The notes below the pieces were generated by a model, which saw only the letters and a program-made list of their open reading frames with translations, made no database searches and had not been told where the DNA came from. Shown one piece after another: positions 25,377 through 64,000 of a stretch of 64,000 bases of DNA. The DNA comes from an uncultured virus (IMG/VR IMGVR_UViG_3300046546_000013) (taxonomy: Duplodnaviria > Heunggongvirae > Uroviricota > Caudoviricetes), in IMG/VR virus record IMGVR_UViG_3300046546_000013. One strand, written 5' to 3'. Positions within the stretch are counted from its first letter, which is position 1. Each line of letters opens with the position of its first letter. A program made the translations under genes and the position numbers.

Positions 25377-25577
25377 TCATCCCCCTGCTTCCATCGCATC
25401 CCTGACTAACGGATCGTTGATAATAATCTTGTACTTCATCTGCTCATGCTGCAGCTGTTCATGTAACTGCTCAATTTGCTTTTGTTGGTCCACAATTGTA
25501 TAGGATAGCCAACTCAAGCCGGCGATCGTTAGCAGTATTGATACCATAGCTAGTACTGTGTAATGATTAACTTTCAT
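25377..25577 (-). CDS. Small membrane/coiled-coil protein
   Basis: TM followed by a Q-rich coil. Confidence 0.6.
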   Translation of the reverse strand: MKVNHYTVLAMVSILLTIAGLSWLSYTIVDQQKQIEQLHEQLQHEQMKYKIIINDPLVRDAMEAGG

Positions 25578-26055
25578 TGGCTTTCAACTCCCAAAATGGC
25601 GCCAATTTATATAGTTTTCCGACTTCTCTATTCAGCGAACGAACCATACTTTCTAGTACAGTCGCCCTAGTTCCGATTGTGACATTTCGCTTTTTGGCTT
25701 TTTTAACGCTTGTTATGCCGATGTTGTGGCTGAGTTCATCAAAAATCAAAATGCCCTCATGATAGTATTTCCAACCTAAATCTTGATCGGCTTGGATTGC
25801 TTCCCATAGTTCGTTAGTTACCACGAGATAGTTATAATCACCGATAAACGTTTGACCTGCCTTTGATTTCAAATCAGCTAGCGTGACTTTGATCTCATAA
25901 CAGCGAATCGTGTTATCTGTTGAATACGTGATATAGTCCACTCGCTCTTTGCCGTACCAACCGATAGTGACTTCAAAACATCCGAAAACACCCATTTTAT
26001 TTGTATAGTTCCATAAGCATTTCTCTGCTTGTCTGGTTAAATTTGTTTTACTCAT
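25567..26055 (-). CDS. PD-(D/E)xK nuclease-like protein (MmcB-like)
   Basis: E..VD...CYEIK...D motif. Confidence 0.55.
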   Translation of the reverse strand: MSKTNLTRQAEKCLWNYTNKMGVFGCFEVTIGWYGKERVDYITYSTDNTIRCYEIKVTLADLKSKAGQTFIGDYNYLVVTNELWEAIQADQDLGWKYYHEGILIFDELSHNIGITSVKKAKKRNVTIGTRATVLESMVRSLNREVGKLYKLAPFWELKANES

Positions 26056-26599
26056 CGGCTTGTTCCAACAGTTCTGGGTTCTCGTAGATGTTGCCTAAAA
26101 TAGTTATATCGCTAGATGCTAAGTTAAAATTGTGCAAGAATATTTCTTCTAAATCTTCCGCATCAGGTAAACTCGTAGAAACAGAAATACCATCAATTTC
26201 ACTAGGTATAGGTTGGGGAGTGTCGAAATCATACTTGGCATCTTTGATTACCCATGCTGTTCCTGTTTCATCTGTATCAACCACACCGATCATATGATTT
26301 TCTTGGTAATAGCCCATAGGCCACTCTTCCCAAAAGATATCAATGATGTCACCTCTATAAACGTCCTTTTCTTCATCGTCTTCGTGGGAATCTGACATAT
26401 ACCCTTTCAAGCCAGTGGATTGCATCAGCACACACGTACCTAAGCCATCATCATCTAATGCAGACCATACGTCCCTTGGCTTACCGTTATCAACTACCCT
26501 AAATTTAACTTGTGTATGTTGCACTTCGCTAAAGCCTAAACTGGTCACTTTACCCATAAGTTTGTCATTTTTATCCCACGCTCTAAATTTTGGTACCAT
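26048..26599 (-). CDS. YopX family protein
   Basis: PKFRAWDK, LMQSTGL and ILGNIYENPELL motifs. Confidence 0.85.
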   Translation of the reverse strand: MVPKFRAWDKNDKLMGKVTSLGFSEVQHTQVKFRVVDNGKPRDVWSALDDDGLGTCVLMQSTGLKGYMSDSHEDDEEKDVYRGDIIDIFWEEWPMGYYQENHMIGVVDTDETGTAWVIKDAKYDFDTPQPIPSEIDGISVSTSLPDAEDLEEIFLHNFNLASSDITILGNIYENPELLEQADE

Positions 26600-26600
26600 C

Positions 26601-26795
26601 TTATCCCTCCTGTTCAATCAAACGAATAGCACGACCGCAAGCAAGCTCATTGTTAAATCTGTAAATATTTTTCCTTACAGAATCCAGATTTTCTTCTTTA
26701 ACTTCTTGATTCATTTTGTATGAAAAATTTGCCCAATCATTAAAGGAATCAAGCCATCCTTGTTCTTCGTTGTCAGTAGTAATGATATATTTCAT
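26601..26795 (-). CDS. Phage hypothetical protein
   Basis: GGAGGG RBS. Confidence 0.65.
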   Translation of the reverse strand: MKYIITTDNEEQGWLDSFNDWANFSYKMNQEVKEENLDSVRKNIYRFNNELACGRAIRLIEQEG

Positions 26796-26797
26796 TC

Positions 26798-27307
26798 TTA
26801 TCCCTCCTGTTCATCCTGTTGGATTTGATCAATCAAATTAATGACTTGACCTTTGCTTAGATTACCTTTGATCCCCAATATTTTCTTTTTCAGATTCAGT
26901 TTAATCGCAGCCGTAGTTTCCTTTGAAACCTTGTCAGATACTCTTTCAGCAATTTTCTTTTCTTGTCTTTTTAACTCGTAGACTTCATCAGCTAATTGCT
27001 TTTTTTCGATCATCAGCGTATTATTTTTTGATTCTAGATCTTCTATCCGAGACTTATAACGGTCGATGCTGTATAGTCTTCCATTCAAATCCGCAATTGT
27101 TTTTTCTTTGTTCTCCAGTACGACTTTCAAGGCTTCAAATTGCTGCAGATCATTTTGAAGTTTTTTGATTTCAGAATCTTTCTGTTCAATTTGCAATTCC
27201 AAAGCCTTTTCTTTCTCATATCCTTGGACTACATATTTTTTCAGATTATCTACGGGAATTTGATCAGCTAAATCATATTCTTTTTTCTTCTTTGTTAATC
27301 CGAACAT
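26798..27307 (-). CDS. Coiled-coil hypothetical protein
   Basis: RBS; heptad pattern. Confidence 0.7.
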   Translation of the reverse strand: MFGLTKKKKEYDLADQIPVDNLKKYVVQGYEKEKALELQIEQKDSEIKKLQNDLQQFEALKVVLENKEKTIADLNGRLYSIDRYKSRIEDLESKNNTLMIEKKQLADEVYELKRQEKKIAERVSDKVSKETTAAIKLNLKKKILGIKGNLSKGQVINLIDQIQQDEQEG

Positions 27308-27351
27308 CTTATCCCTCCGTTCATGATATAATCGCCATAGGAGGCGATCGT

Positions 27352-27612
27352 ATGAAAATTACTGTTGATCTAAACTCAGTTGTTCCAATAGCCGTCATTG
27401 ATGCTGTTAATGAAATGATGTATCCATTACGAGTCATCGAATTAAGCGATGATCCTAACGAATTTCTGAAACAACTGAGTATTTACATAAATGAGTATTC
27501 TGATGAATTTTCTGAAATTCTTAAGCAACAGTTTATGGTTAGAGTGACCGAACGTGTTGCAGTTGATCTGAAAACACAAGGAATTTCAATAGTTCCAAAA
27601 GAAGACTCTTAG
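27352..27612 (+). CDS. Antisense-oriented hypothetical protein (86 aa)
   Basis: TGATATAAT, AGGAGG RBS and terminator aagactc..gggtcttttt. Confidence 0.7.
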   Translation: MKITVDLNSVVPIAVIDAVNEMMYPLRVIELSDDPNEFLKQLSIYINEYSDEFSEILKQQFMVRVTERVAVDLKTQGISIVPKEDS

Positions 27613-27622
27613 TGGGTCTTTT

Positions 27623-27648
27623 TTCCGTTATCGCTGACGATTACTGAC
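27623..27648. repeat. Putative recombination site R5
   Basis: ttccgttat-cgctgacg-attactgac. Confidence 0.6.
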
Positions 27649-27769
27649 TTATTTGTTTTTTTACAATCTAAAGATTTTTTATTATCAAAAAATCAAATAA
27701 CGATATTTTCAATTCATTTACATTAATTCTATTAATTAGTATATAATCTAACTGAAAGGTGGTTTATCT

Positions 27770-28078
27770 ATGAAAAAAATTTGTTTTGTCTTAGTGCTCA
27801 ATAATGTAATGTCGTATACGCCATTATCTCCGGGACTTCTTTTTAAAAAAGATACAAGCCTTAAAGATTATTTCTCTCAGTTTTACGATGTTTCAGTAAA
27901 TTATCTTAGGGACAAAGATAATGTTGACTACTTGGTCCTTCCTGAGCCATTCGTTCCTTTTGATAATGAAAACAACCTTCCTATCATAAAAGTTCCTTCT
28001 AAATTCTTTCTGACTAAAGATTTTGAAAAAATTAAAGAGTACATTGATGACTACTTTAAAGAAAACGATGATAAGTAA
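27770..28078 (+). CDS. Hypothetical protein in the R5-R4 interval
   Basis: Own promoter-like TTTACA..TATAAT and GAAAGGTG RBS. Confidence 0.7.
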   Translation: MKKICFVLVLNNVMSYTPLSPGLLFKKDTSLKDYFSQFYDVSVNYLRDKDNVDYLVLPEPFVPFDNENNLPIIKVPSKFFLTKDFEKIKEYIDDYFKENDDK

Positions 28079-28129
28079 CGCTATCCTCGATCGTTTATAG
28101 CCCCTACTGGTTGATATCATTATCAATCA

Positions 28130-28155
28130 GTTTTTTATTTCGTCGGATAGCTGAC
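28130..28155. repeat. Putative recombination site R4
   Basis: gttttttat-ttcgtcgg-atagctgac. Confidence 0.6.
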
Positions 28156-28156
28156 T

Positions 28157-28375
28157 TCAATTTGCTTTTTGATTAGTTATCCGATTCAAGAATTCTTTTT
28201 CAAATAGTATAGTGTTAGTGTTGAACCAATTAGCCAGCTTTAAATCATCACCACTAAGCCAATGTGTTCCGTTTATTAACCAATCAACGTCCGCACTATA
28301 TAAATCATGCAAAGATCGATATTTTTCAGATAGTCGGTTAATTTCATTAATTACCATAACTGGTATTTTCTTCAT
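28157..28375 (-). CDS. Hypothetical protein
   Basis: GGAGG RBS; stop codon 1 nt from R4. Confidence 0.65.
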   Translation of the reverse strand: MKKIPVMVINEINRLSEKYRSLHDLYSADVDWLINGTHWLSGDDLKLANWFNTNTILFEKEFLNRITNQKAN

Positions 28376-28539
28376 CGAAGTTCCTCCGATTTCAGTCTTG
28401 CTTTCAATTCTTCCAGATCCTTTTCAGCAAATATTCTGTTTCCATGCCATTTTGAAATGAACTCAAAGTCGTTAGTTTCCAGCGCTTCTTCTAGAGCAGC
28501 GATTTTCTTTTCGATAATTCTCAAACTTGCTTTGCTCAT
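28372..28539 (-). CDS. Hypothetical protein (55 aa, MSKASLRII; not in the track)
   Basis: GGAGGG RBS next to R3; ATGA overlap with the next gene. Confidence 0.65.
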   Translation of the reverse strand: MSKASLRIIEKKIAALEEALETNDFEFISKWHGNRIFAEKDLEELKARLKSEELR

Positions 28540-28551
28540 GTTTTCCCTCCA

Positions 28552-28577
28552 GTTTTCTATTTTGGTGGATAGTGGAA
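28552..28577. repeat. Putative recombination site R3
   Basis: gttttctat-tttggtgg-atagtggaa. Confidence 0.6.
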
Positions 28578-29315
28578 TTACTCTCTGTAATAATCATAGA
28601 TTTCTAAGTAGCCAGATATATCACTCGGAAGATAATCAGACGTCGTCACAATTATTTCTTGTAATAGTGTTTTGCTTAATTCCACTAGATCATTTAAATC
28701 ACCCAAGTTGATAATCTCTATAGACAACAAACTGTAACGAATTATTTAGTTTAATCCGAGCTTTGTCAGTGCGTTATTTAGCTAGAAAGTAACCGCTATT
28801 CCTATACCAATGTTTTTAATTTTTATATTACAGTTTTCTTTCTATAATATTTTGTACCAATTTAGCAATATTTTTCTCATGAAATTTTCATAGTTTTTTC
28901 CATTATTTTTTCACTAAAAACATATCGATAGTATACTTAAATTATTTAATTATCCGATATTTCTTTAAAGGACTTGAAATGTAATGAGAAGCCAGAAACA
29001 AATTACAATAAAAGATTTTTTTAATACTAAGAGTAATATCATTAATTTACTAAATTCAATTAATCAGGATAACAAAAAAGAACTCGAATTCGTTTTTTCA
29101 AAATTTTTTCCATATGGTAAAATAAAAATTTTCGATCTTTTCCAAAATAAGCCTTTACATAAAAAGGTTTGTCGACAATCAGTGCCTTCCTATCCTCAAC
29201 CGATTACTTTTTACAATCAAAATTATTATCCAAGCATTTGTAGAGTTTTTATTCTATTCAAATTATTATTCATACATAATCTACTTCACACTGTTCAATA
29301 ACGTAATTATTTCTA

Positions 29316-29341
29316 GTTTTCAATCTCTGTCGATTAGCTAC
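29316..29341. repeat. Putative recombination site R2
   Basis: gttttcaat-ctctgtcg-attagctac. Confidence 0.55.
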
Positions 29342-29510
29342 TCTTCTTAAATTTTTTTACGCTCAATAGCGTTGGTTGCAAATAGTATTCAAAGGCATAA
29401 AATTTCTCGCAACTTGGACACTGTTCCTCTGTAAATTCTTCTTCAGGAGCGATTTCGTGAATTTCAGTTTCATAAATCGTCCCACAATATGGACATTCGA
29501 TACCTAACAT
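29334..29510 (-). CDS. Zinc-ribbon protein (58 aa; not in the track)
   Basis: GAGGAGG RBS; CPYCG...CPSC. Confidence 0.75.
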   Translation of the reverse strand: MLGIECPYCGTIYETEIHEIAPEEEFTEEQCPSCEKFYAFEYYLQPTLLSVKKFKKSS

Positions 29511-29526
29511 AATTTGTCCTCCTCTA

Positions 29527-29552
29527 TTCCGTTATCTCTTCCAATTCTGGAA
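29527..29552. repeat. Putative recombination site R1
   Basis: ttccgttat-ctcttcca-attctggaa. Confidence 0.6.
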
Positions 29553-29855
29553 TTATTTCAGGTCACTGGATTTAACGAAAACACCATTGACCATCTTCCC
29601 AGTTCGCCCTTTGATTTCGTCATAAGCGAAATTCAAGCACTCGTATAAATCCATGTCGTTTTGCAAAGCTAAAATAATAATGGTCACAGCAACATCTCCG
29701 ATGCCATCGCGTAATGCATCTTGGTCATTTCTAGCTAATGCAGCCGCAACTTCTCCGACTTCTTCGACAACTTTCAGCATTTGCTTGCTGGAATCTGCCT
29801 TATCAAGTCCCTTGTTTTTCGCCCACTGCTCTACTGATTCAATTAATACATCCAT
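29553..29855 (-). CDS. MazG-like NTP pyrophosphohydrolase
   Basis: KVVEEVGE...DGIGD...AYDEIKGRTG motif. Confidence 0.85.
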   Translation of the reverse strand: MDVLIESVEQWAKNKGLDKADSSKQMLKVVEEVGEVAAALARNDQDALRDGIGDVAVTIIILALQNDMDLYECLNFAYDEIKGRTGKMVNGVFVKSSDLK

Positions 29856-29875
29856 GTTATTCCCTCCAATTTAAG

Positions 29876-29945
29876 TTATGCACATATCCACAAAGTTATG
29901 CACAATATATTGTAGGAACGTATTTTCGCCCACTATATATTGATT
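29876..29945. promoter_or_regulatory. Cluster of DnaA-box-like and tandem NrdR-box-like motifs
   Basis: TTATGCACA x2 and ATATCCACA; CAATATATTG and CTATATATTG 30 bp apart. Confidence 0.55.
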
Positions 29946-30141
29946 ACTTTGTTCTTTTATAGCCCAATTCAATCAAAAACTCTTCCCTTTGGTTCAAAGC
30001 GTTACGATAAATCGCCTGTACACCAATTTGATCCGCATAGGCTTTTCCTTCTTGACTAGTAATAAAACGATAGGTCCTTGCTGTTTCATCTACTAAAATC
30101 GCGTGAAATTCGTTGTAATAAATTCTTTTCAAAATATTCAC
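29944..30141 (-). CDS. Hypothetical protein
   Basis: Starts right after the recombinase stop; GAGG RBS. Confidence 0.6.
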   Translation of the reverse strand: MNILKRIYYNEFHAILVDETARTYRFITSQEGKAYADQIGVQAIYRNALNQREEFLIELGYKRTK

Positions 30142-30142
30142 C

Positions 30143-31141
30143 TCAACTTACAAACTTTTGATGGGAGATCTTCACTTCATCATCATTGATCATCGAGTAA
30201 GCCATCGTAGTCTCAATATTTTCATGACCGAGGAACCTAGAAACGAGTTCTATCGGCATCCCGTGTCTTCTCGCAAGTGTTGCGGCTGTCCTTCTGAATC
30301 TGTGTGGGTGAACATTCAAAACACCTGCACGTTCCCCTAGACGATTGACCAACTTTTGGATTCCGGCATTAGTCATCTCTTTCCCTCTCGTCTGTCCATA
30401 AAATAATGGACCAGTGATGTGAGGCACCTCTTTTAAGTAATAATTCAATGCCAGCTTTGCCTTGGCATTAAAGTATAAAGTTCTTTGCTTGTTGCCTTTT
30501 CCAATCACTTCAATCGAATCATTTTCTTGGTCATAGTTACTAAAATTGAGAGAAACCAATTCAGAGACTCGACATCCAGTACTCAATAGCAGTTCGATGA
30601 TTAGCGTTTCTTTCGCATTAGATGCAGCAATTCGTAGCTTTTCAACTTCAAGCTCGCTGAATTCTTGTTTGCGCCTTTTGGGTACTTTTATCTTTTCCAC
30701 CCTTGCGCCAGGATCTCGATCGATAAACTCTTCGATATACAGCCAGTGAAAGAACCTAACGATGCAGCCACGTTCACGAGCAAGCGTACCTTTAGATATT
30801 CGATCCTGAATTTCCCTGTTGGCAATAAACAATCGAATGTCATTTGTGGTGATATCCTTAAACGGCTTTCTAAGCTTGCTCATGAAGAAGTTGATCGTCT
30901 GCATATAAAGTTTCAACGTTCCGTCTGAAAGCCCCTGAATCTTCTTTGACACCATAAATTGATGGTATGCAGCTGCATCGGATCTCTCATCATAGATCAC
31001 TACATCAGTTGAAGTTTTAACTAAGTCGAAGGAATCCAAATGCATCAATAGAAGCATATTTACTTTCCTAAGTTGTTCTGGATCCAAATCATTTTCTAAA
31101 TCTCCAACAATTTTATTAATCAGCGACTCCTTGTTGGTCAT
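30143..31141 (-). CDS. Second tyrosine recombinase (XerC/D-like) in the early region
   Basis: GCRVSEL, GKGNKQR, HPHRFRRT and LGHENIETTMAY: full R-K-H-R-H-Y set. Confidence 0.9.
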   Translation of the reverse strand: MTNKESLINKIVGDLENDLDPEQLRKVNMLLLMHLDSFDLVKTSTDVVIYDERSDAAAYHQFMVSKKIQGLSDGTLKLYMQTINFFMSKLRKPFKDITTNDIRLFIANREIQDRISKGTLARERGCIVRFFHWLYIEEFIDRDPGARVEKIKVPKRRKQEFSELEVEKLRIAASNAKETLIIELLLSTGCRVSELVSLNFSNYDQENDSIEVIGKGNKQRTLYFNAKAKLALNYYLKEVPHITGPLFYGQTRGKEMTNAGIQKLVNRLGERAGVLNVHPHRFRRTAATLARRHGMPIELVSRFLGHENIETTMAYSMINDDEVKISHQKFVS

Positions 31142-31673: not shown

Positions 31674-32519
31674 CTAACCACCTCCCTTTTTGTTTAGATA
31701 GGCTTGGACCTTAGCATTTATTTCCGCTTGGCGTTCTGGGGCAATTTCAGGCTCTGGTTCAGGATTAACGAACCTTTCAGGCAATGGTTCTTCTCGAATA
31801 AAAGGTTTCTTCATTCGCTTTTGGTTACTTGTTTCTTTTTTTATCTCAAACTTGAGACTGTCAAATTTTTCTCTCAGCTTTTTAGCACTTCTGATATTGC
31901 CAAACCAAAACTCACTTGAAGGAAGCCAATTGATCACATATTCCATTTGTTTGATAGTACGATCATCCTTTTCCTCCATAAGGCGGATAACATCTGCCCA
32001 TTTTTCCAAGTTGGCTTTTTTCATTTCTTTAGGAAAATCATATATCAAATTATTTTTAAGCTTCGAAGCAAGCGTGAAGTGTTCGGTAGAATACTTCACA
32101 GGAGGAGTTTCAACTTCTTCTTTATTTGTATTATTAAATGTATTATTAATAGATGTATTATTATCTTGATAGATTTCTGGGTGAGGGGTCACCCATTTTT
32201 CTGGGCTACACCCTACATTTTTCTGGGTGGGGCCGTCTAGAATTCTGATATACCTAGCTTCAATTTCCTTAGTCCCTTTTTTGTATTTGACCTCTCTGTA
32301 TATGAACCCCCTATCTTCAAGGGACTTAAGCCAATTTTGAATAGTAGACTTACCTACTTTATACTGACTGGCGAAATAGTCATTACTTGCCCAGCAATAG
32401 CCTTTTTCATTGCACAAGGCGGTAATTTCTCCGTACAAAAGTTTTGCGTTAGGTATTAAAGTATCGTCATATCTAACACTGGCAGGAATTACTGCAAAAT
32501 AACTTCGGTGATCACTCAC
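31674..32519 (-). CDS. Replication initiator (replisome organizer)
   Basis: YFAVIPASVRYD..AKLLYGEI..GYCWASN HTH; C-terminal FWFGNIRSAKKLREKF; internal iterons. Confidence 0.85.
   Translation of the reverse strand: MSDHRSYFAVIPASVRYDDTLIPNAKLLYGEITALCNEKGYCWASNDYFASQYKVGKSTIQNWLKSLEDRGFIYREVKYKKGTKEIEARYIRILDGPTQKNVGCSPEKWVTPHPEIYQDNNTSINNTFNNTNKEEVETPPVKYSTEHFTLASKLKNNLIYDFPKEMKKANLEKWADVIRLMEEKDDRTIKQMEYVINWLPSSEFWFGNIRSAKKLREKFDSLKFEIKKETSNQKRMKKPFIREEPLPERFVNPEPEPEIAPERQAEINAKVQAYLNKKGGG
32127..32230. other. Putative phage replication origin
   Basis: TTTCTGGG iterons at 32174, 32198 and 32220 next to three TGTATTATTA AT-rich repeats, inside the initiator gene. Confidence 0.7.
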
Positions 32520-33237
32520 GATACTCCTCCTCAATAGCTTTCTTGAACAAATCTTCCGTTTCGTATTCTTCATCAAATCGCATAATTTGGGCGTTGTTCA
32601 TAATGCCGATCTTGATCAATGCCTCTTGGTCTAAGTAGACTGGTTTGATTTGATATTTTTGAATAAACTCTTCTTGACCTAAGTTGTGAGCGATATTGTG
32701 GTACTTCCAACTCAAAGCAACAAATGGAAACTTCCGATGATCGACTTTGTTCCTGTGTCGGTTTCCTACCGCTGTTACATGGTGGATCTGCGCGCCTGAT
32801 TGACCAGTTACTGCGCATTTGCGGTATTTGCAGCAGAAGTAGAAGAAACTATCGTGTTCCAGAAGATAGTTATAACGCCTAGGCAGTTGAACCCCTTCTG
32901 CAACAACGTATTCGATTAGAAAGTCAATCCATCGGTTCATCTCTGATTTACTAGCCTCAGCATGGCTGAACTCACAATCGTACGTATTTTGATAAATGTT
33001 TCGCATTTTCTCTTTCGCTTCATAGCGTGGAATATTTTCACTCTCAGCAATATCTTTGATCAATGAATGAGACAATGCATTTTGCTTCGCACTTCTGGGG
33101 TCATTATCTATAAACTGAATTTCTGCGAATCCCTCCTGTCCCCTGCGGATCGTTTCAAGGTGCTCAGGATTCACATTCTCGTCAACTTCCAGTAGAAATC
33201 TGTTCCCCTGTTGCTTTAGAATCTTGGCTAGCATCAC
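32512..33237 (-). CDS. Putative HNH-like nuclease (NinB/DUF968-like)
   Basis: RSAKQNAL; CAVTG...IHH...HNIAH motif. Confidence 0.7.
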   Translation of the reverse strand: MMLAKILKQQGNRFLLEVDENVNPEHLETIRRGQEGFAEIQFIDNDPRSAKQNALSHSLIKDIAESENIPRYEAKEKMRNIYQNTYDCEFSHAEASKSEMNRWIDFLIEYVVAEGVQLPRRYNYLLEHDSFFYFCCKYRKCAVTGQSGAQIHHVTAVGNRHRNKVDHRKFPFVALSWKYHNIAHNLGQEEFIQKYQIKPVYLDQEALIKIGIMNNAQIMRFDEEYETEDLFKKAIEEEYRE

Positions 33238-34148
33238 TCAATCACTTCTATAACATCAATTTTTAATTCAACAATTCGTTTGTTTAGCTCAAAAAATTTT
33301 GCTTCCGATCCTCCAAGCTTTATAGTTGAGACTTTTTCATAAACCGGCGTTTCCCTTTCTCCGACTGATTCTTCTTTGATTTCGCCAGTCTCTAAGTCAA
33401 TTGGCACCGAGGGGACATGCTCTTTTTGTTTGACTTCTTGGATAACTTCTTCGCCTATAGCGATACGAGCTTTTTGCTCTGCCACGACTTGATTGATTTG
33501 ATCAAAGACTTCTTGCAATTCGTGGCCTTGATCGATCCAACGAACCCAAGAGAATGGATCTAAGCCAACAGCCTGCGCATAGCTTTCAACTGCTTGTTTA
33601 TTCGCTGCTAATGTTTGTTTCTTTGTCACGATTTCATTAATGGTATCTGTGATTTCTTTACTGATCGCTTTTGTTAATTCACCCTTAGCAGCAGTGAATG
33701 AACCTTTATTTGTCCATCGATCAGAAATTTCAATTTCACTTGGATCGACACCTAATGCACTGCACAGATCCTCTATTTTTTCTTTCACTTTCTGCAATCG
33801 GGAATCACGTTCTTTCGTTTCGAACTTTTCGAGGCTCTGAGAAATTCCTTCTTTTGCCGCTTCCATCTGATTAACAAATGTCTTGATCTTGGCTTCAAAT
33901 GCTTTTAACGGCTCTGAATACCCGTTTTTTACTTCTTTTCGTTTTTCTTCCAGCAATTTGATAATGTTATTCAGAGACGATCGTGCATCTTTAGCTCCTT
34001 GGATGTCTCCTTCACTAAAGGTCAAACTTTTGTAATGATTGGCGGTATTTTTAACAAGCGCTTCAAGCTCTGCTTCATTTTTGATTTCAATGGTACTTGG
34101 TGTATAGTCAATCTGAATTGATGTGTCTGTTTTGATTAATTCATTCAT
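33234..34148 (-). CDS. DUF1351-like coiled-coil protein
   Basis: AKDARSSLN..KRKEVK..PLKAFE motif; next to Sak. Confidence 0.7.
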   Translation of the reverse strand: MNELIKTDTSIQIDYTPSTIEIKNEAELEALVKNTANHYKSLTFSEGDIQGAKDARSSLNNIIKLLEEKRKEVKNGYSEPLKAFEAKIKTFVNQMEAAKEGISQSLEKFETKERDSRLQKVKEKIEDLCSALGVDPSEIEISDRWTNKGSFTAAKGELTKAISKEITDTINEIVTKKQTLAANKQAVESYAQAVGLDPFSWVRWIDQGHELQEVFDQINQVVAEQKARIAIGEEVIQEVKQKEHVPSVPIDLETGEIKEESVGERETPVYEKVSTIKLGGSEAKFFELNKRIVELKIDVIEVIE

Positions 34149-34905
34149 CAGATATTTTCCCCCATGTAAATGATTTAGTTTCATTCTTTTTCGGTACTGC
34201 TTGTTCAGATATTTTAGCTTTCTGAATTTTTTCCGCTTCAAGTTTCAAACGATTTGCACGATTCAAAATAGACCCATACTCATTTTTATTTAATTGATCA
34301 AATGGTGTTTGTATTTTTGTGTTTTCTCGTATATTTGCAACAAGGATTTCAAAATCAGTGTCTGTCGCTTGAGCAACAACATTGAGTATTTCGTCCAAAT
34401 AGCCGACTTGTTCCTCGCTAATTAGTTCTGGCTTAGAAATATCTTCTGGCATATCTTCCCCTGCATATAGATACAAGCCTAATCCATGTTTGGCCAACGC
34501 TTTAACAAAGCAGCGTTTATTACTAGTGTTAATTTGAAAACTGTTAGGATTAGATACTGGATACTTGGCTTTTTCAACAATTGGCAGCCATTCTGTTTCT
34601 GCCTTACCTTGAAATGTCACAGTGTTTCTCACGAAAAATCCTTGTGGTGTTTTTAAATAAGGGACCGTAACCCCTTCAATCATTCGAAATTGATTATCAA
34701 ACATTGGAAATTCGTGTACTTTTTCTGATGCCTCTGGATCGATACGCTTCATTTCTCGCCATCCGTATGACCACGAAAGATATTCAAGAGTATATTCTTG
34801 AGGCTCTCCTTGCTTGTCTGTATATTTTTGGACATTCTTTTTAACTGCTTTCTTTATGTCTCGGTTGTAAAGATCCTCAAAAGGAACAATTGCTTTTATT
34901 GTCAT
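34141..34905 (-). CDS. sak: Sak (Rad52-like) ssDNA annealing protein
   Basis: YLSWSYGW and RCFVKALAKHGLGLYLYAGED motifs. Confidence 0.85.
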   Translation of the reverse strand: MTIKAIVPFEDLYNRDIKKAVKKNVQKYTDKQGEPQEYTLEYLSWSYGWREMKRIDPEASEKVHEFPMFDNQFRMIEGVTVPYLKTPQGFFVRNTVTFQGKAETEWLPIVEKAKYPVSNPNSFQINTSNKRCFVKALAKHGLGLYLYAGEDMPEDISKPELISEEQVGYLDEILNVVAQATDTDFEILVANIRENTKIQTPFDQLNKNEYGSILNRANRLKLEAEKIQKAKISEQAVPKKNETKSFTWGKISDE

Positions 34906-39325: not shown

Positions 39326-39427
39326 ATAAAAAACACGCCCCTCCGACCAAAGACAGGCGTGCAAAACAAAATAAACGATAGGCTTATTTAGTCATGCCTA
39401 TTGTATCAAAGAATTGAGGTATACACA

Positions 39428-40567
39428 ATGTGGAGCGAATCTTTAGGCAACGGAAGATATAAGTTTATAGAAAGATACAAAGATCCCTATACCGAAAAAT
39501 GGAAAAAGACAAGTACTGTTCTAACAAGTGATTCTTCCAGAGCCTGGAAGAATGCACAGAAAATATTAGACAAAAAAATAGAGGAAGCTTTAAGTAATTA
39601 TGATAAATCTGACATCACTTTCAAGGAGCTTTACGAAGAGTGGTTTGTTTATTATCAACAACATGTAAAAAGAACAAGTTGGACCAAAGTTCCAAAGATG
39701 ATGAAACATATTCAAAAAGTTATATCTGACGATGTTCTTGTTCGAAATATAGACGAGAATATGATTCGTAATATTACAGAAAAAATGTATACTTTCGGTG
39801 ACCTATCCTTGAATTATACGAAACAGACCAAGACGACCCTTTCAATCATGTTGAATTATGCAGTTGAGAAAAAGTATATTAAACAAAATCTAGCGCTGAA
39901 TGTCAAAATTCAAAGAAAAAAAGCTGAAGAAGAAAAAAGAAAAAAGAACATGGATGAAAAATACCTTGATCAAAGCGAAATGACAGAGTTGCTTGTATAT
40001 ATGAGAAAATCTACTAAAAGATTATTGCACGCTAACATTGCAGAATTGTTATATTTAACAGGCCTAAGATACGGAGAGTTACAGGCATTACAAGTAAAGG
40101 ACTTTGACGGGAGTACTTTGGATATTAACGGCACATTGGACTATTCTTTCTTAAAAATGGCAGATGCTATAAAAACTTCACCTAAAAATATCTATTCTAA
40201 AAGAATAGTTTCTTTGCCTAATAGAGCAGTAAAAATTGTTAATGAAATCATAGAACACAACTCTTTAGTATTTGGCTCCCAAAGTAACGAGGATTATATA
40301 TTTAAATCATCTAGAGGTACTCCGTTGTCTCTCCATAGCTTTAATATGGTACTGCATAGAGTTCAAGACGAACTAAAATGGGATAAAAACTTATCCTCAC
40401 ACATATTCAGACATAGTCATATTTCTTTACTAGCTGAATTGAATCTTCCTTTAAAAACCATAATGGAGAGAGTCGGACATTCCGATGCCAACACGACTTT
40501 ATCAATTTATAATCACGTGACCAAAAAATCCAAAGAGCAGGTTATCGATCGATTAAACAATTTGTAA
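39428..40567 (+). CDS. int: Prophage 1 integrase (tyrosine recombinase)
   Basis: GLRYGEL, SHIFRHSH and VGHSDANTTLSIY motifs; GAGGT RBS; adjacent to att. Confidence 0.95.
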   Translation: MWSESLGNGRYKFIERYKDPYTEKWKKTSTVLTSDSSRAWKNAQKILDKKIEEALSNYDKSDITFKELYEEWFVYYQQHVKRTSWTKVPKMMKHIQKVISDDVLVRNIDENMIRNITEKMYTFGDLSLNYTKQTKTTLSIMLNYAVEKKYIKQNLALNVKIQRKKAEEEKRKKNMDEKYLDQSEMTELLVYMRKSTKRLLHANIAELLYLTGLRYGELQALQVKDFDGSTLDINGTLDYSFLKMADAIKTSPKNIYSKRIVSLPNRAVKIVNEIIEHNSLVFGSQSNEDYIFKSSRGTPLSLHSFNMVLHRVQDELKWDKNLSSHIFRHSHISLLAELNLPLKTIMERVGHSDANTTLSIYNHVTKKSKEQVIDRLNNL

Positions 40568-42466: not shown

Positions 42467-43417
42467 TTACCATGGAAGTTTATTATTGTTCAATGCTGTT
42501 TGCAATGCTTTCACCATATTTGAAGTCGGGCTGATGATTCCATCTTGTGTGGTACCCAAAGCTTGTTGCATTGCTTTGATTGTGTTCTTTCCACACAAGC
42601 CGTCAACTGCACCATTGTAGTAGCCTTTTGCTTTCAAGACCTTCTGAATAGCACGAATAAGGTCAGATCCGATCAATGTAGTGTCGAATTGTGCCGAATA
42701 CAAGTTAGCGTTACACGCTTCTTTGTATTGGTGACTTACTTCGCCATCCTTGTAGGTATCGTGATACTCTTGCAGACGTGTGGTTACTGCAGGTCCCCAC
42801 TTGCCATCAACGGATAAAGTTGTAAATTGCTCAACAATGTTCGAGGATGTGTTGCCAGATAACAGACTGTTCACTTTATTTTGCACCTGAGTCGCATCAT
42901 ATCCTGCAGCTTTTAATGCCGCATTTCTTGCGTCACCATTTCCCCACAATCCATTAATCACTTCTCTAGCTACCGCTTCAATAGATTTTCCGCCTGTGGT
43001 TGTATTTTCTGTAGCTACAATACGATAAAAATGATGTGGCAGACGAGTGCTCATGTACGAGTCATGGCTATCGGTATGGATTCCGTTCCAATAGTATGAA
43101 CAATGAATGAAACTCTTATTACTTAGGAAGATACCTGTATGTCCCCCTGACCCATTAGACTGACCAGGAGTACCAGCAACAAAAATATCTCCACGCTTCA
43201 CTTCTGATCGACTGATTTTTTTCAGTTTAGTACCTGACATTGCAAACAATGTTTCAGTGTTCCCCATGGACCCGATAGGTAGAAAACCACCTGCGATCAT
43301 GGCCAAGAATACTGCAGAAGAACAGTCGTAGCTTTTAGGACCCAAACGACTTGTCATTGAATAGGTTACCTTGCCTTCGCGGTCGGTCATCCATTTGATC
43401 ATTTGTTCAATGCTCAT
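42467..43417 (-). CDS. Endolysin (NlpC/P60-type, CW_7-like, PG-binding)
   Basis: Same motifs as lysin 1; intact C-terminus NNNKLPW. Confidence 0.9.
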   Translation of the reverse strand: MSIEQMIKWMTDREGKVTYSMTSRLGPKSYDCSSAVFLAMIAGGFLPIGSMGNTETLFAMSGTKLKKISRSEVKRGDIFVAGTPGQSNGSGGHTGIFLSNKSFIHCSYYWNGIHTDSHDSYMSTRLPHHFYRIVATENTTTGGKSIEAVAREVINGLWGNGDARNAALKAAGYDATQVQNKVNSLLSGNTSSNIVEQFTTLSVDGKWGPAVTTRLQEYHDTYKDGEVSHQYKEACNANLYSAQFDTTLIGSDLIRAIQKVLKAKGYYNGAVDGLCGKNTIKAMQQALGTTQDGIISPTSNMVKALQTALNNNKLPW

Positions 43418-43458: not shown

Positions 43459-43776
43459 CTACTCCTTCTTTTCTGTGAACTCTTGGCCATCACCGTAATC
43501 TGGTTTTTGATCATTGCTACCTAAATTTAAAAGTTGTACAAATAATTGGTGCATCCCTGTGGATGCAATCCCGCTAACCGCCCCATAAACAATCGCTTCC
43601 ACAGTTAATCCATTGATGATTGCTCCTAGAATCGCTCCTAAGACAATAACAATCAATGGAATATAGCCATTGGCCACTGCTGCAAATACGGGCGTTGACT
43701 TGATCAAATATCCCACTACTAAACACGCTACGACAATCACTGGTACTAAATACTCCTGCAAGAAATTCAAATCCAT
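43459..43776 (-). CDS. Holin (three TM)
   Basis: Hydrophobic; GIASTGMHQ motif; upstream of the lysin. Confidence 0.85.
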   Translation of the reverse strand: MDLNFLQEYLVPVIVVACLVVGYLIKSTPVFAAVANGYIPLIVIVLGAILGAIINGLTVEAIVYGAVSGIASTGMHQLFVQLLNLGSNDQKPDYGDGQEFTEKKE

Positions 43777-43778
43777 TT

Positions 43779-44072
43779 TTATTTCCCTCTTTCTTTCCAT
43801 AAAGATTTTAATTGTTCTCCATGCTCAACTAATTTTTCACTATGCTTATCTAATCGTTCATCCTGACGCTTTAATTCGTCATGAATCGCAACTCGATCAG
43901 ACTTACTGGCTTCTAAATCACGATTTAACAAATCCAGACTATGAGTCATCTTTGTTAGATTCTCAGTGATTTTTGTGAAATTTGACATTACTGGTCTAAT
44001 AACAAATGCCATCAAACCAACAATTGTCATAATCCAGCCCGCCCAAGTTGCTAATTCCCCTACGTTTAACAT
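43779..44072 (-). CDS. Lysis-module TM/coiled-coil protein
   Basis: N-terminal TM plus coiled coil. Confidence 0.6.
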   Translation of the reverse strand: MLNVGELATWAGWIMTIVGLMAFVIRPVMSNFTKITENLTKMTHSLDLLNRDLEASKSDRVAIHDELKRQDERLDKHSEKLVEHGEQLKSLWKERGK

Positions 44073-59983: not shown

Positions 59984-60802
59984 TTATTTTTTTATTTCTG
60001 GCACCACAAAACAGTGACAATGAATCGACTCTTTAGCAGATAACATAGGGTCACGAGGATAACGGCAGCTTTCGCCATTGACGATGAAATACTCGCCTTT
60101 AGCGATTGTTTGACCGTCCATCGCTTCGTGTCCCTTTCTCGGTTCTTTGATGCCATGAGTATGGCGCCAGGTCATGCCAATAACAGCATCGTTTTGCATT
60201 AATGCTTCATACTGGCTGCCAGAGTACATCCTTAATCCCTCAGTGATCGCAGTTGTTCTGGCACGATTGCGAGAGAATTCAGGGAGTGAAGACAGCTTAC
60301 TTTCTAACCATCGGATGCCTTTACCTTCATCAAAAGATTCTTGAATCACTCCTACAAGAGCGTTCTCTGTAGAAACGTTCATTAGTTTTGGCAGCTTCCT
60401 AAGCCATTTTTCGATGTCTCGGTAGTGTTTAGTCTGATAATCAAAATCCTCAGATCCGTCATACTTGGCATTAAATTCATCAAACAACCCAAAGAAAGCT
60501 TTTCTCAGTTCTGGGATAACACTTTCTTCCATGTTTGATTTGAATGATCGTCCACGGAGCATAACTTTTATAGATAACTTGGTAGGTTTCTTTTTCCGAT
60601 TCTCTACGAATTTTTTAACCTTTTCCCATACTTCCTCGTAATCAATTTGCAAGGTCTCATCCATCTTATCCTCTGAATTTAAGATGAACGTAAGCAATAT
60701 TGGGACAAATAAAAAGCCTGCTTTTTCTAGAAGCTTAGCCAGTTCATCATCCTCTTCTTTTTTTAACTGTAAAGCGGCTTTAATTAACTCTTCATCATTC
60801 AT
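59984..60802 (-). CDS. Minor head protein (Mu F-like)
   Basis: RARTTAITE..R.GH..YPRDP..IHCHC motif. Confidence 0.8.
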   Translation of the reverse strand: MNDEELIKAALQLKKEEDDELAKLLEKAGFLFVPILLTFILNSEDKMDETLQIDYEEVWEKVKKFVENRKKKPTKLSIKVMLRGRSFKSNMEESVIPELRKAFFGLFDEFNAKYDGSEDFDYQTKHYRDIEKWLRKLPKLMNVSTENALVGVIQESFDEGKGIRWLESKLSSLPEFSRNRARTTAITEGLRMYSGSQYEALMQNDAVIGMTWRHTHGIKEPRKGHEAMDGQTIAKGEYFIVNGESCRYPRDPMLSAKESIHCHCFVVPEIKK

Positions 60803-63634: not shown

Positions 63635-64000
63635 AATCAACCACCACTTTCAGATCCATATTGCCATCTAGTTCCACTTTATCAGTCCATAGGCTATACC
63701 TTTTGCCAAGGAGTTCAGCTGCTCTTATACGATCTTTATTAGCTACTTGCACATCTTCTATCGTTGAACCGTATTCAGATCCTTGAAAGACTACCGTTTG
63801 ATCTGTTTCTTCTCCTCGCATAACCTTACTCAAATATTCCAGGACCTCTTCTTGATTAGCGATTTTTTCTGATTGCAGCTGTTCAAGTCTTTCGTCTATA
63901 TATTGTCTAATGTCAGGTTTTGTCAGGTTCTCACTACCTACAGACTTAGCAGTTCGTTTGCTGTACCCAGCAGAAATAGCGGCTTGAGTAGCATTACCGC
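63597..64000 (-). CDS. terS: Terminase small subunit (5' end outside the window)
   Basis: Frame is open to the window edge: GNATQAAISAGYSKRTA...RIRAAELLGKRY. Confidence 0.88.
   Translation of the reverse strand, partial: GNATQAAISAGYSKRTAKSVGSENLTKPDIRQYIDERLEQLQSEKIANQEEVLEYLSKVMRGEETDQTVVFQGSEYGSTIEDVQVANKDRIRAAELLGKRYSLWTDKVELDGNMDLKVVVDYGDGENEAPNDS

Follow-up and report, generated by a model that had tools for sequence, protein, structure and literature searches.

Short junction sites, in which two inverted arms flank an asymmetric 8-bp core, lie between small accessory genes in the window (the whole 64,000-nucleotide stretch of phage DNA analysed here) and in its relatives, where they keep a fixed order and enclose hypervariable, slot-bound cargo, with recombinant joints falling between their arms. 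From these sequence comparisons we tentatively favour the view that the sites are protein-recognised, site-specific points of crossover between collinear phage genomes. Literature searches found no published description of this arrangement.

A family of junction sites in the window and its relatives

The junction sites are 26 bp long, with the 8-bp core held between two inverted 9-bp arms of consensus ~KTCMGYWAT. Those recognised in the window, with their arms-only matrix scores, are:

29527..29552, minus strand: R1, class A site, TTCCAGAAT-TGGAAGAG-ATAACGGAA, 19.8 bits
29316..29341, minus strand: R2, class A2 site, core CGACAGAG, degenerate arms, <11 bits
28552..28577, minus strand: R3, class B site, core CCACCAAA, 18.5 bits
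28130..28155, minus strand: R4, class C site, core CCGACGAA, 20.6 bits
27623..27648, minus strand: R5, class D site, core CGTCAGCG, 22.0 bits
25488..25513, plus strand: class E site, GTCCACAAT-TGTATAGG-ATAGCCAAC, 23.2 bits, the highest in the window

R1 to R5 had been proposed in a preliminary description, and all five 26-mers were verified, with coordinates, strand and arm-spacer-arm letters as given there; their arms are complementary at 6, 5, 5, 5 and 6 of 9 positions, respectively. Each site had also been placed at or next to a stop codon. For R1-R4 this is the stop of a minus-strand ORF of 40 aa or more, which the site adjoins or overlaps, whereas R5 comes after a TAA at which no ORF of this size ends. 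R1 lies between the stop codon of a MazG gene and the ribosome-binding site of a Zn-ribbon gene, R2 overlaps the stop codon of the latter, and the right arm of R4 is also the T-run of a plus-strand terminator-like hairpin (28106-28131). The class E site sits within the ORF of a 66-aa membrane protein (25377-25577, minus strand) and its matrix-preferred strand is opposite to that of classes A-D; across loci there are 31 class E sites, and that of L071 is intergenic.

Judged on the window alone, the motif does not exceed chance. The R1-R5 set gives 12.69 bits over 18 arm columns, whereas in 60/60 Markov shuffles of the region a greedy search turned up five sites that together scored higher (at least 14.04 bits), and the sum-of-pairs score of the five sites is 106/180 against 123-136 in 40/40 shuffles. 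The degenerate pattern of the preliminary description matches five places only, but it was fitted to them. In relatives, by contrast, the motif stands well clear of shuffled DNA: across 42 related loci (416,632 bp) there were 169 arms-only matches of at least 14 bits compared with 5.2 expected and a maximum of 9 in 20 shuffles, a count that is partly circular because the matrix was trained on arms from the same loci, while the core classes are matrix-independent. The cores of 149 of the 169 matches fall into six classes, and ~9 more belong to the same classes on the other strand. In a second test, a matrix made from 67 arm pairs of relatives, with the window left out, scored five window positions at 15 bits or above, against 0.42 expected and a maximum of 3 in 100 shuffles; these are R1, R3, R4, R5 and the new site at 25488-25513, which came top although the training set had no class E site. 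As had been proposed, the sites form a genuine family whose inverted arms enclose an asymmetric core of 8 bp, and they occur with the same cores in the same order in viral contigs and several Enterococcus species. In samples holding this DNA, R1, R3 and R4 are the only places where contigs of other, co-resident phages match the window, the matches being 19-23 bp long and in order.

The two arms mirror each other in consensus, with T at left-arm position 2 in 75 and A at right-arm position 8 in 76 of 79 sites, and mirroring also at positions 1/9, 5/5 and 6/4. Arm-arm pairing showed no covariation above that of randomly re-paired arms (a mean of 5.35 Watson-Crick pairs per site versus 5.20, sd 0.10), which fits duplex half-sites rather than a hairpin, and an Rfam search of the sites gave no match. 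The arms may be half-sites for a protein dimer. The sites occupy the gap from the stop codon of one gene to the ribosome-binding site of the next: for classes A-D, the left edge is the stop of an ORF of at least 40 aa in 80/128 sites, and an ORF of this length begins no more than 30 nt past the right arm in 90/128. They are often the sole sequence common to otherwise unrelated genes. In five Enterococcus genomes, matches to the consensus were the prophage arrays, with the remaining matches at control level, and no host regulon was found.

Core classes keep their order and cargo keeps its slot

The core classes are collinear, A>A2>B>C>D>E, with each class once per array, and the sole exception to the order is a pattern-only match 3.5 kb away in L150. 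Sites A-D all have the same orientation. The core class of R2, YGACAGAR, holds the same relative position, between A and B, in eight other loci (e.g. L141, L020, L015 and L026), and the class D core is invariant in 37/37 sites, many of these loci having been found with this core. In the window, the cargo bounded by the sites and the gene ahead of it are:

29553..29855, minus strand: MazG-like pyrophosphatase gene, last before site A
29334..29510, minus strand: slot A-A2, 58-aa Cys-rich (Zn-ribbon-like) ORF, weak Cys_rich_CPXG and Zn-ribbon matches, below cut-off
28578..29301: slot A2-B, 105-aa gene at 28984-29301 (plus strand) and 50-aa ORF at 28578-28730 (minus strand)
28157..28539, minus strand: slot B-C, 55-aa and 72-aa ORFs
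27770..28078, plus strand: slot C-D, opposite-strand 102-aa gene
25377..27612: slot D-E, 106-aa ORF (plus strand), 169-aa, 64-aa, YopX-like 189-aa and 162-aa ORFs, and the start of the 66-aa ORF

The sites bound self-contained gene units, as first described. However, slot A2-B had been called a decayed AT-rich segment, and its 105-aa gene is 43% identical (E 5e-19) to an ORF of L013 in the same slot and orientation; the 50-aa ORF there matches phrog_11889. Likewise, the 72-aa family of slot B-C is found in that slot of L020, and the unit 28157-27628 is 93% identical to L011.

Across the arrays, 210 cargo ORFs form 113 families, 72 of them singletons, and distinct gene contents number 14 in 16 loci for slot A-B, 18 in 21 for B-C, 18 in 25 for C-D and 15 in 29 for D-E. 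Not one gene recurs in every array, that of the 66-aa membrane protein being the most widespread (28/34 loci). Among the 41 families that recur in two or more loci, only three have both flanking site classes different. By this distribution gene families evidently stay in their own slot, in the manner of allele-like cassette replacement and not of integron- or pdif-like mobility.

Recombinant joints fall between the arms

At the junctions the left arm stays with the gene before the site and the right arm with the gene after it, and since each arm tracks its own flanking gene, crossovers fall between the arms. In pairs with only the upstream flank in common, left arms have 0.67-1.0 mismatches and right arms 2.5-5.25, pairs with only the downstream flank in common show the reverse in classes A and B, and class B pairs with both flanks unrelated differ at 0.22/8 core positions compared with 2.88/9 and 2.32/9 in the arms, all of these being statistics on core classes partly defined by core patterns, with class D loci found via the D core. 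Arm types had been reported to occur in all four combinations, as crossover inside the spacer would produce; in relatives they reassort around constant cores, and the breakpoints bear this out.

Three-way mosaics show the between-arm joints directly at R1, R3, R4 and R5. At R1, six relatives match the upstream flank and left arm and cease to match at core position 8 or at the right arm, and the BLAST blocks of six relatives stop at 29520-29532. R3 is identical to a site of L041 at 26/26 bases with both flanks unrelated, and its core and downstream flank are common to the window and L020. R4 has the upstream flank, left arm and core of L020, and the right arm and downstream flank of L011. For R5, the right arm and downstream flank are common to L010 and L048, and the upstream flank to L011, where there is a misfit to strict core-only crossover, as the flank shared with L011 runs up to the stop codon and 3/9 left-arm positions differ. 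L004 carries a hybrid site, with a B core followed by a right arm and gene found after C elsewhere, which is the product of a B-by-C deletion.

The adjacent recombinase and other recombination genes

Upstream of R1 the window encodes a tyrosine recombinase, and further recombination functions lie nearby:

30143..31141, minus strand: Xer-like tyrosine recombinase, 332 aa, Pfam Phage_integrase and SAM-like N-terminal domain
29944..30141, minus strand: 65-aa ORF past the recombinase, phrog_8929, unknown function
34141..34905, minus strand: Sak-like (Rad52-type) single-strand annealing protein, phrog_659, E 8.7e-46

The catalytic set of the recombinase is intact and its active-site motifs align with those of XerD (1a0p), its best solved relative (E 4.4e-25). 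Its best NCBIfam match is XerA-type (206.3 bits, cut-off 220), and it scores 64.8 bits as an integron integrase (cut-off 265). The 65-aa ORF accompanies it in 10 loci. Where present, the recombinase heads the array in both of its lineages, and in the second (72-74% identity) the stop codon of the recombinase gene overlaps site A. Relatives at 34-39% identity lie in Type I R-M loci with several hsdS genes.

Co-occurrence of sites and recombinase, which the preliminary description implied, was not borne out. The gene lies within at least 4 kb upstream in only 2/23 distinct site-bearing loci, sampled independently of the recombinase, and in 0/9 Enterococcus or Bacillota genome loci, and the Xer-like genes of five array-bearing host genomes are only 25-33% identical to it. 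In 3/10 close relatives (L006, L012 and L013) it is truncated or split, and site quality is equal with and without it (19.83 versus 19.74 bits). Nine recombinase-less loci carry RecT/YqaJ, RusA or RecU, so that, with these or a Sak-like protein nearby, enzymes of homologous recombination are always at hand.

Alternative explanations

The main rival is recombination by annealing proteins at short linkers, in which Sak, RecT, Erf or RecA would act on the 11-22 bp that are identical around the core, without a site-specific enzyme, and the arm symmetry would have another cause or none. We consider this possible but doubtful. Every array-bearing phage examined has such recombination genes close by, the sites persist where there is no tyrosine recombinase, cassettes are replaced in a strictly allelic, collinear way, which homologous exchange would predict, and the R5 arm mismatch with L011 suits a less precise process. 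Short conserved boundary sequences are an established idea, as outlined in PMC3029335, and phage Rad52-like enzymes are described in PMC3945230 as recombining short, diverged sequences. However, the minimal efficient pairing segments quoted in the latter are 23-27 bp for Red-beta and 31-34 bp for RecA, whereas the exact identity run through the centre of same-class sites with unrelated flanks, under the class definitions given above, has a median of 16 bp in 1454 pairs and reaches 23 bp in only 23.5% and 31 bp in 3.8%. Homology would also favour identity of the whole element, yet cores are near-invariant and arms ~30% different, and a single mirror-symmetric arm consensus around five or six unrelated cores is left unexplained.

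It is unlikely that the 26-mers are operators or RNA signals serving the stop-to-RBS gap, with recombination incidental to their conservation. Their position in that gap, a mirror symmetry typical of operators and the shared T-run at R4 would suit such a role, but in an operator the arms must be conserved and the spacer free to vary, whereas in these sites it is the spacer that varies least, and it is position-specific. Neither a gene common to all arrays nor a regulon in the five Enterococcus genomes accompanies the sites, the lack of arm-arm covariation argues against a conserved hairpin, and the Rfam search was empty.

The preliminary description, which is partly supported overall, had proposed an integron- or pdif-like system in which the neighbouring recombinase cuts out, inserts and reorders cassettes inside the phage genome. 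The site architecture does fit a tyrosine-recombinase core site, the enzyme is found at the array head in both lineages, and the L004 hybrid is of the kind that deletion would leave. Nevertheless, we regard this model as very improbable, as the enzyme is no integron integrase and is absent from 21/23 sampled arrays, the sites score at most -2 bits against the E. faecalis dif sequence and are without hairpin covariation, and families do not move between slots. With one site per core class in each array, identical partner sites are absent within a genome, and this, with the fixed order, fits exchange between genomes rather than rearrangement within one. Finally, the notion that five sites were picked by eye in AT-rich DNA, which the window-alone scores would suit, is refuted by recurrence of the same sites in relatives, the ordered classes and the three-way mosaics, and has a negligible chance of being right.

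Relation to known systems and proposed exchange

Core sites of the lox/FRT type have exact 13-bp inverted arms around an asymmetric 8-bp spacer, and in engineered recombinase-mediated cassette exchange heterospecific spacers flank a cassette, sites pair only with those of the same spacer, and the cassette is exchanged instead of being deleted. The phage sites resemble these in their inverted arms, 8-bp asymmetric spacer and differing spacers on either side of a cassette, but their arms are 9-10 bp and degenerate, the enzyme is a candidate only, and the system is a natural one across a phage gene pool. T4-type promoter-early stem-loop cassettes are also small early accessory genes flanked by short repeated elements (promoter plus stem-loop), which are thought to drive modular shuffling; the phage sites, however, have neither a promoter nor a conserved hairpin. 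As in integrons (IntI, attI, attC), small, mostly promoterless genes are arrayed between imperfect inverted-repeat sites, with a tyrosine recombinase at the array head in some phages, but this enzyme is far below the integron-integrase cut-off, cassettes keep their slot, and sequence rather than folded structure is conserved. In the pdif (Xer) modules of Acinetobacter plasmids, Xer-type sites with a 6-bp centre and alternating orientation bound gene modules with no recombinase in cis. The phage arrays share this bounded layout, mostly without a recombinase in cis, but have an 8-bp centre, a single orientation for A-D and no likeness to host dif (the E. faecalis sequence used for comparison being that given in the supplement of PMC3025954).

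The nearest relatives of the window recombinase outside the phage group sit between hsdS genes, in the kind of phase-variable Type I R-M locus that has hsdS-inverting tyrosine recombinases such as PsrA of S. pneumoniae (PMC7096588). These enzymes shuffle gene segments at short repeats, but by inversion between inverted repeats in one locus, whereas the phage sites are direct, between genes and once per genome. Modular theory, as presented in PMC3029335, places short conserved 'linker' sequences at lambdoid module junctions, with joints inside them and unrelated modules reassorting between collinear genomes, much as here; unlike the linkers outlined there, the phage sites form an ordered array of five or six, share a mirror-symmetric arm consensus with an own 8-bp core each, and mostly fall below the quoted homologous-recombination pairing segments in identity.

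In many temperate phages of Enterococcus, the early accessory-gene region has five or six places, fixed and collinear, at which the elements lie, the core being position-specific and almost invariant between phages and the arms loose in consensus. On the site-specific reading that we favour, two collinear phage genomes in one cell would swap DNA within the core of a matching site, by a putative exchange of tyrosine-recombinase type that requires identical partner cores. Every gene would thereby retain the arm, stop codon and ribosome-binding site that belong to it, and unrelated genes would replace whole slots. The adjacent Xer-like recombinase is the only candidate enzyme visible in the sequence, but it is dispensable in cis; were it responsible, it would have to work in trans throughout the phage pool. 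Because cores differ by position, neighbouring sites should not recombine with each other, and if they do not, the array would be protected from deletion.

Five sites in the early region of a tandem prophage

Five 26-mers on the minus strand, R1 (29527-29552), R2 (29316-29341), R3 (28552-28577), R4 (28130-28155) and R5 (27623-27648), had been proposed as recombinase-like sites separating accessory genes, and all five were found there with every letter matching. The window holds two prophages in tandem, with the array of sites in the first. The early region of this prophage carries, in order, a Rha-like regulator, a Sak-like gene, a DnaD-like gene, the Xer-like recombinase gene, a 65-aa ORF and a MazG-like gene, past which a string of small genes with no assigned function extends to an ArpU-like regulator immediately before the terminase.

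Features of the two tandem prophages
39401-40564, plus strand, att integrase, first prophage
near 37.6-38.3 kb, repressor region, first prophage
about 37 kb down to 24 kb, minus strand, early genes, first prophage
34141-34905, Sak-like annealing protein, early region, first prophage
31674-32576, DnaD-like replication organiser, early region, first prophage
30143-31141, minus strand, Xer-like tyrosine recombinase (332 aa), early region, first prophage
29553-29855, MazG-like gene, early region, after the 65-aa ORF
after the early genes, down to the lysin at 56-1030, terminase, portal and structural genes, first prophage
42470-43417, lysin, second prophage
43462-43800, holin, second prophage
60798-62327, portal, second prophage
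62342-63640, large terminase, second prophage

The second prophage occupies 40565-64000 and is oriented like the first, its early region lying past the window end. A 6.7-kb contig from the same samples has R1-, R3- and R4-type sites at ~680-bp intervals, the DNA in between being unrelated, and may be the array of this second prophage.

Between the 65-aa ORF and the MazG-like gene there is a 47-bp non-coding element (29896-29942, minus strand), which is common to several other contigs from the same samples with 4-6 differences and with both flanks divergent. Within it is an 8-bp inverted repeat, CAATATAT ... ATATATTG; two copies of GTGCATAACTT come next, and direct repeats are present near 29873-29903. 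This element does not belong to the site family; it is possibly the array's promoter or operator, as well as a further mosaic junction.

The sites recur in related phages in a fixed order

Window-only statistics cannot support the sites, because the five-site set was no better than the best sets in shuffled sequence: it scored 12.69 bits, while a greedy search found better sets of at least 14.04 bits in all 60 regional shuffles, and a sum-of-pairs score gave the same outcome in 40/40 shuffles. A pattern that matches only R1-R5 was fitted to those sites after the fact.

Relatives were collected both through the recombinase and independently of it. With the recombinase protein as query we recovered 12 viral contigs, two of which are identical to the window and 10 of which are distinct (92-98% protein identity). 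Upstream of the array the DNA of these relatives matches the window, and a matrix built from R1-R5 found the same kind of 26-mer repeatedly 3' of the recombinase in every one of them. Searching the phage collection with the region by megablast returned only two partial records, and a protein-pattern scan of genome contigs with the recombinase returned no relative. Independently of the recombinase, viral contigs scanned with the 14-base D core gave at least 120 loci, about half of which, among the matches listed, are chance matches in unrelated DNA. Likewise, a 20-base D string used to scan a single genome of each species gave 13 loci, nine of them from Enterococcus species or a Bacillota MAG; the remaining four lie in high-GC MAGs, where no further sites were found.

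An arms-only matrix applied to 42 loci (416,632 bp) gave 169 matches of at least 14 bits compared with 5.2 expected, a count that is partly circular since the matrix was trained on the arms of those same loci. The discreteness of the cores is free of that circularity: 149 of the 169 matches have cores in six classes, and ~9 more belong to the same classes on the other strand. When the window was left out of training, R1, R3, R4, R5 and a new site, E, were recovered, with five positions at 15 bits or more against 0.42 expected. R2, which has degenerate arms, was missed by this matrix, and its core class was found between A and B in eight other loci. Class order is always A, A2, B, C, D and E, with some loci lacking some classes.

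Site classes, their cores and the corresponding sites of the window
Class A, core YGGAAGAR, R1
Class A2, core YGACAGAR, R2
Class B, core CCACCAAA, R3
Class C, core CCGACGAA, R4
Class D, core CGTCAGCG, R5
Class E, core CCTATACA (TGTATAGG on the other strand), new site at 25488-25513

Conserved cores lie between mirror-image arms

Each site consists of two inverted 9-bp arms around an 8-bp core. The arm consensus is a mirror image, with KTCMGYWAT on the left and ATARCNRAM on the right; T occupies left position 2 in 75/79 sites and A right position 8 in 76/79, and the mirrored positions are 1/9, 2/8, 5/5, 6/4, 8/2 and 9/1, the last two being partly fixed by the collecting pattern. Complementarity between the arms of R1-R5 is 5-6 of 9. 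Across the collected sites the arms form 5.35 Watson-Crick pairs compared with 5.20 (sd 0.10) for randomly re-paired arms, and with no extra complementarity within sites the symmetry points to a half-site common to both arms rather than to a hairpin. The sites have no match in Rfam, and on this and the absent covariation a hairpin, RNA or attC-like reading was rejected. A reading of the sites as a host regulon was also rejected.

Among sites found by their arms alone, the exact core was present in 22/26 for class B, 23/24 for C and 29/31 for E. The A and B cores vary at their outer positions, which go with the adjacent arm, so the invariant centre may be 6 bp with 10-bp arms. Classes A-D read on the gene strand, and E alone prefers the other strand. 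The element occupies the intergenic gap: its left edge is the end of an ORF of at least 40 aa in at least 80 of the 128 class A-D sites, and an ORF of that length begins within 30 nt past the right arm in at least 90 of the 128. In the window, the reported adjacency to minus-strand stop codons holds for R1-R4, each of which touches or overlaps the end of a real minus-strand ORF, and fails for R5.

Rarer cores with good arms were also seen: GATGATGG upstream of A (loci L026 1875, L041 1878 and L146 3818), CTACGGAA between B and C (L011 8317, L038 2091), ACGGACCA far downstream (L054 5090, L058 9958, L146 9292) and TAATAAAA in two Enterococcus genomes (G003:C7:545302, G006:C2:35570). The site family probably comprises more than six classes and extends outside the A-E stretch.

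Two sites of the window overlap other features. Site E lies within the stretch that encodes LSWLSYTIVD in a 66-aa membrane protein (25377-25577, minus strand) that is present in 28/34 loci; in L071 it is intergenic, immediately 5' of the homologous gene, and in L009 and L011 one flank has been replaced at it. From these forms and replacements, the junction seems to swap an N-terminal membrane segment in frame. At 28106-28138 on the plus strand, a hairpin with an 11-bp stem terminates an opposite-strand 102-aa gene, and its T-run is the R4 right arm (ATAAAAAAC on the minus strand), so that this arm variant has two purposes; it goes along with the 102-aa-gene cassette in L011.

Accessory genes are exchanged in place at the sites

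Synteny with relatives breaks at the sites, as the preliminary description had suggested should be checked. The match between the window and related DNA ends at R1 (29520-29532) in six loci, and in L011 it picks up again between 28157 and 27628 exactly, the stretch from R4 to R5. The cargo between sites comprises 210 ORFs in 113 families, 72 of them singletons, with 14 distinct contents of the A-B slot in 16 loci, 18 of B-C in 21, 18 of C-D in 25 and 15 of D-E in 29. For only three of the 41 families found in two or more loci do both flanking site classes differ; cassettes are swapped in place and do not hop between slots. DNA methyltransferases are frequent in the B-C slot, with L058 5364-6290 identified by Pfam as a C-5 cytosine methylase, and the N-termini of the ORFs at L008 8257-9015 and L010 7942-8607 look methyltransferase-like by eye only.

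Joints could be followed within the sites themselves. Where a pair of sites has only its upstream flank in common the left arms are similar and the right arms different, and where only the downstream flank is common this pattern is reversed. R4 is such a mosaic, the window being the same as L020 over the upstream gene, left arm and core, and the same as L011 over the right arm and downstream unit. R3 and the corresponding site of L041 are identical at 26/26 bases with both flanks unrelated, and for same-class sites with unrelated flanks the median exact identity is 16 bp. An exception to strict crossover in the core is R5, where the window and L011 have a common upstream flank and their left arms differ at 3/9 positions. 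In the samples containing the window, R1, R3 and R4 are the only places, taken in sequence, at which contigs of other phages match it, which places exchange partners alongside the window's phage. The 23 sequencing runs with this DNA, all of them contigs and 22 of them possibly the source sample, gave no listed joints.

These elements are crossover points at which collinear phage genomes exchange accessory-gene slots. The original observation is confirmed and extended, and its interpretation as real recombination-type junction sites bounding cassettes stands; the tie that it drew to the recombinase is not supported, and integron-like mobility does not hold.

The recombinase is carried by a minority of site-bearing loci

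The enzyme at the head of the array is a simple Xer-like recombinase with XerD as its best solved relative (E 4.4e-25). Alignment to XerD 1a0p showed conserved RVSEL, GKGNK, HxxR, LGH and Y motifs, and the catalytic Arg, Lys, His-x-x-Arg, His and Tyr motifs are intact. Its best NCBIfam model is the XerA type, at 206.3 bits just short of the cut-off of 220, and it falls below the cut-offs of the other Xer equivalogs (XerC 149.3 against 335, XerD 143.9 against 330, XerS 83.1 against 267).

A second lineage of the recombinase (72-74% identity; L021, L071 and L076) has the stop codon of its gene overlapped by site A. Relatives at 34-39% identity, the closest outside this phage group, belong to Type I R-M loci with several hsdS genes and lie on human fecal phage contigs (L135 6869-7858, L137 2454-3446, L138 1185-2177), placed among hsdM, several hsdS (some inverted) and hsdR, an arrangement that phase-variable Type I restriction systems have. 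Those at 31-36% lie between the tail and lysis genes of clostridial-type phages, as in Clostridium phage phiCp-D and Terrisporobacter phage TPELB_ph1; a distant homologue in L136 is placed likewise. The arm matrix found no site arrays in L135-L138.

The expected co-occurrence of sites and recombinase was not borne out. In the D-core sample, with at least 4 kb upstream required and near-identical copies merged, the recombinase was present in two of 23 independently sampled, distinct site-bearing loci among the matches listed; L071 is a third carrier, its D site lying below the cut-off used. It was present in none of nine Enterococcus/Bacillota genome loci, and in five array-bearing host genomes the only Xer-like genes are 25-33% identical to the phage enzyme. 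Furthermore, among 77 ORFs of nine recombinase-less loci neither recombinase class was found, and their replication modules are quite different. Site quality is equal with and without the recombinase.

Three of the ten close relatives have a truncated or split recombinase gene, shortened to 315 aa in L006 (6001-6948), split into 230 + 77 aa in L012 (6001-6923) and lacking the N-terminal third in L013 (5971-6633), and the junction sites are intact there.

The array is neither an integron nor a pdif system

The proposal of an intragenomic integron- or pdif-like system failed on enzyme, site structure, site sequence, orientation and cassette mobility. The window's recombinase is not of the IntI type: it scored 64.8 bits with the NCBIfam integron integrase model (cut-off 265), and the IntI4 structure matched it only at E 6.9e-6 over 68 residues. 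Integron attC sites conserve structure through paired arms, whereas here the core sequence is conserved and the arms lack covariation; integron cassettes can take any array position, whereas here families are slot-bound and class order is fixed. pdif sites resemble the host dif, with an 11-bp arm, a 6-bp centre and an 11-bp arm, unlike the sites described here, and pdif modules have sites that alternate in orientation, whereas A-D all lie on the same strand. The E. faecalis V583 dif (PMC3025954, supplement) reached at most -2 bits against the arm matrix, whatever the frame and whichever spacer of 4-10 bp was allowed, and was rejected as a model of the sites. The array is therefore neither an integron nor a pdif system, and an intragenomic mechanism of either kind is highly improbable.

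In design the array comes closest to engineered cassette exchange between heterospecific lox or FRT sites. In concept it is closest to the short conserved boundary sequences of modular theory (PMC3029335); here too a short conserved sequence lies at gene boundaries between unrelated flanks and the joints fall inside it. Full-text searches with four cores as strings, and the literature on Enterococcus prophage mosaicism, conserved junctions, hypervariable early regions and recombination hotspots, yielded no description of these sites, subscription journals lying outside the scope of both.

Exchange may be guided by a protein that reads the arms

Exchange between like sites would depend on such a protein and on the two cores being identical. 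This is suggested by five or six unrelated cores all having the same mirror-symmetric arms, and by a core that is nearly invariant within a class when the arms differ by ~30%; such a core is the strand-exchange requirement of a tyrosine recombinase and not what pairing driven by homology would select. The median identity of 16 bp also lies below the pairing segments quoted in PMC3945230, which are 23-27 bp for Red-beta and 31-34 bp for RecA. As in core sites of the lox, FRT and dif type, inverted arms of a common consensus flank an asymmetric 6-8 bp centre that is the same between partners. Differing cores would, in addition, stop neighbouring sites from deleting the genes between them, and a site in L004, where a right arm of C follows the core of B, shows that such deletions do happen, rarely. 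However, few of the sampled loci encode a recombinase alongside the sites and an enzyme common to all of them is not apparent, whereas annealing proteins and resolvases occur throughout, and infrequent events would be enough over evolutionary time. We lean only tentatively towards site-specific exchange, by an enzyme that is unproven.

Recombination at the linkers by annealing proteins is the main rival explanation and somewhat less probable: homologous-recombination enzymes are present, and the identity mostly falls under the pairing segments quoted in PMC3945230. It is rather unlikely that the window's own recombinase acts on the sites. We also consider it rather unlikely that they serve a natural, heterospecific cassette exchange in which an Xer-like recombinase, carried by a minority of Enterococcus phages, joins like sites in trans between co-resident phages. 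Such an enzyme would pair A with A, B with B and so forth between co-resident genomes and would thereby reshuffle five or six accessory-gene slots over the whole phage gene pool, and good arms would be kept because only cassettes with good arms would spread. That the sites are expression elements at which recombination is incidental seems improbable.

Significance for phage mosaicism

The origin of phage-genome mosaicism is an old open question, with one view holding that joints are random and illegitimate and the useful ones are kept by selection, and the other that exchange is guided by short conserved linkers. The linkers described here, five or six in a set order and all mirror-symmetric, delimit hypervariable slots of small early genes and recur in phages of several Enterococcus species, an arrangement that opens the mechanism of mosaicism to direct test by two-site assays and phage crosses. 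Such early accessory genes are a common place to look for anti-defence and host-takeover functions, and the sites provide a simple rule for locating cassette boundaries and further accessory genes in prophages of Enterococcus. Should a site-specific enzyme be involved, they would form a naturally orthogonal set of recombination sites, and if a recombinase does act on them in trans, this would be the first known site-specific system dedicated to making phage mosaicism.
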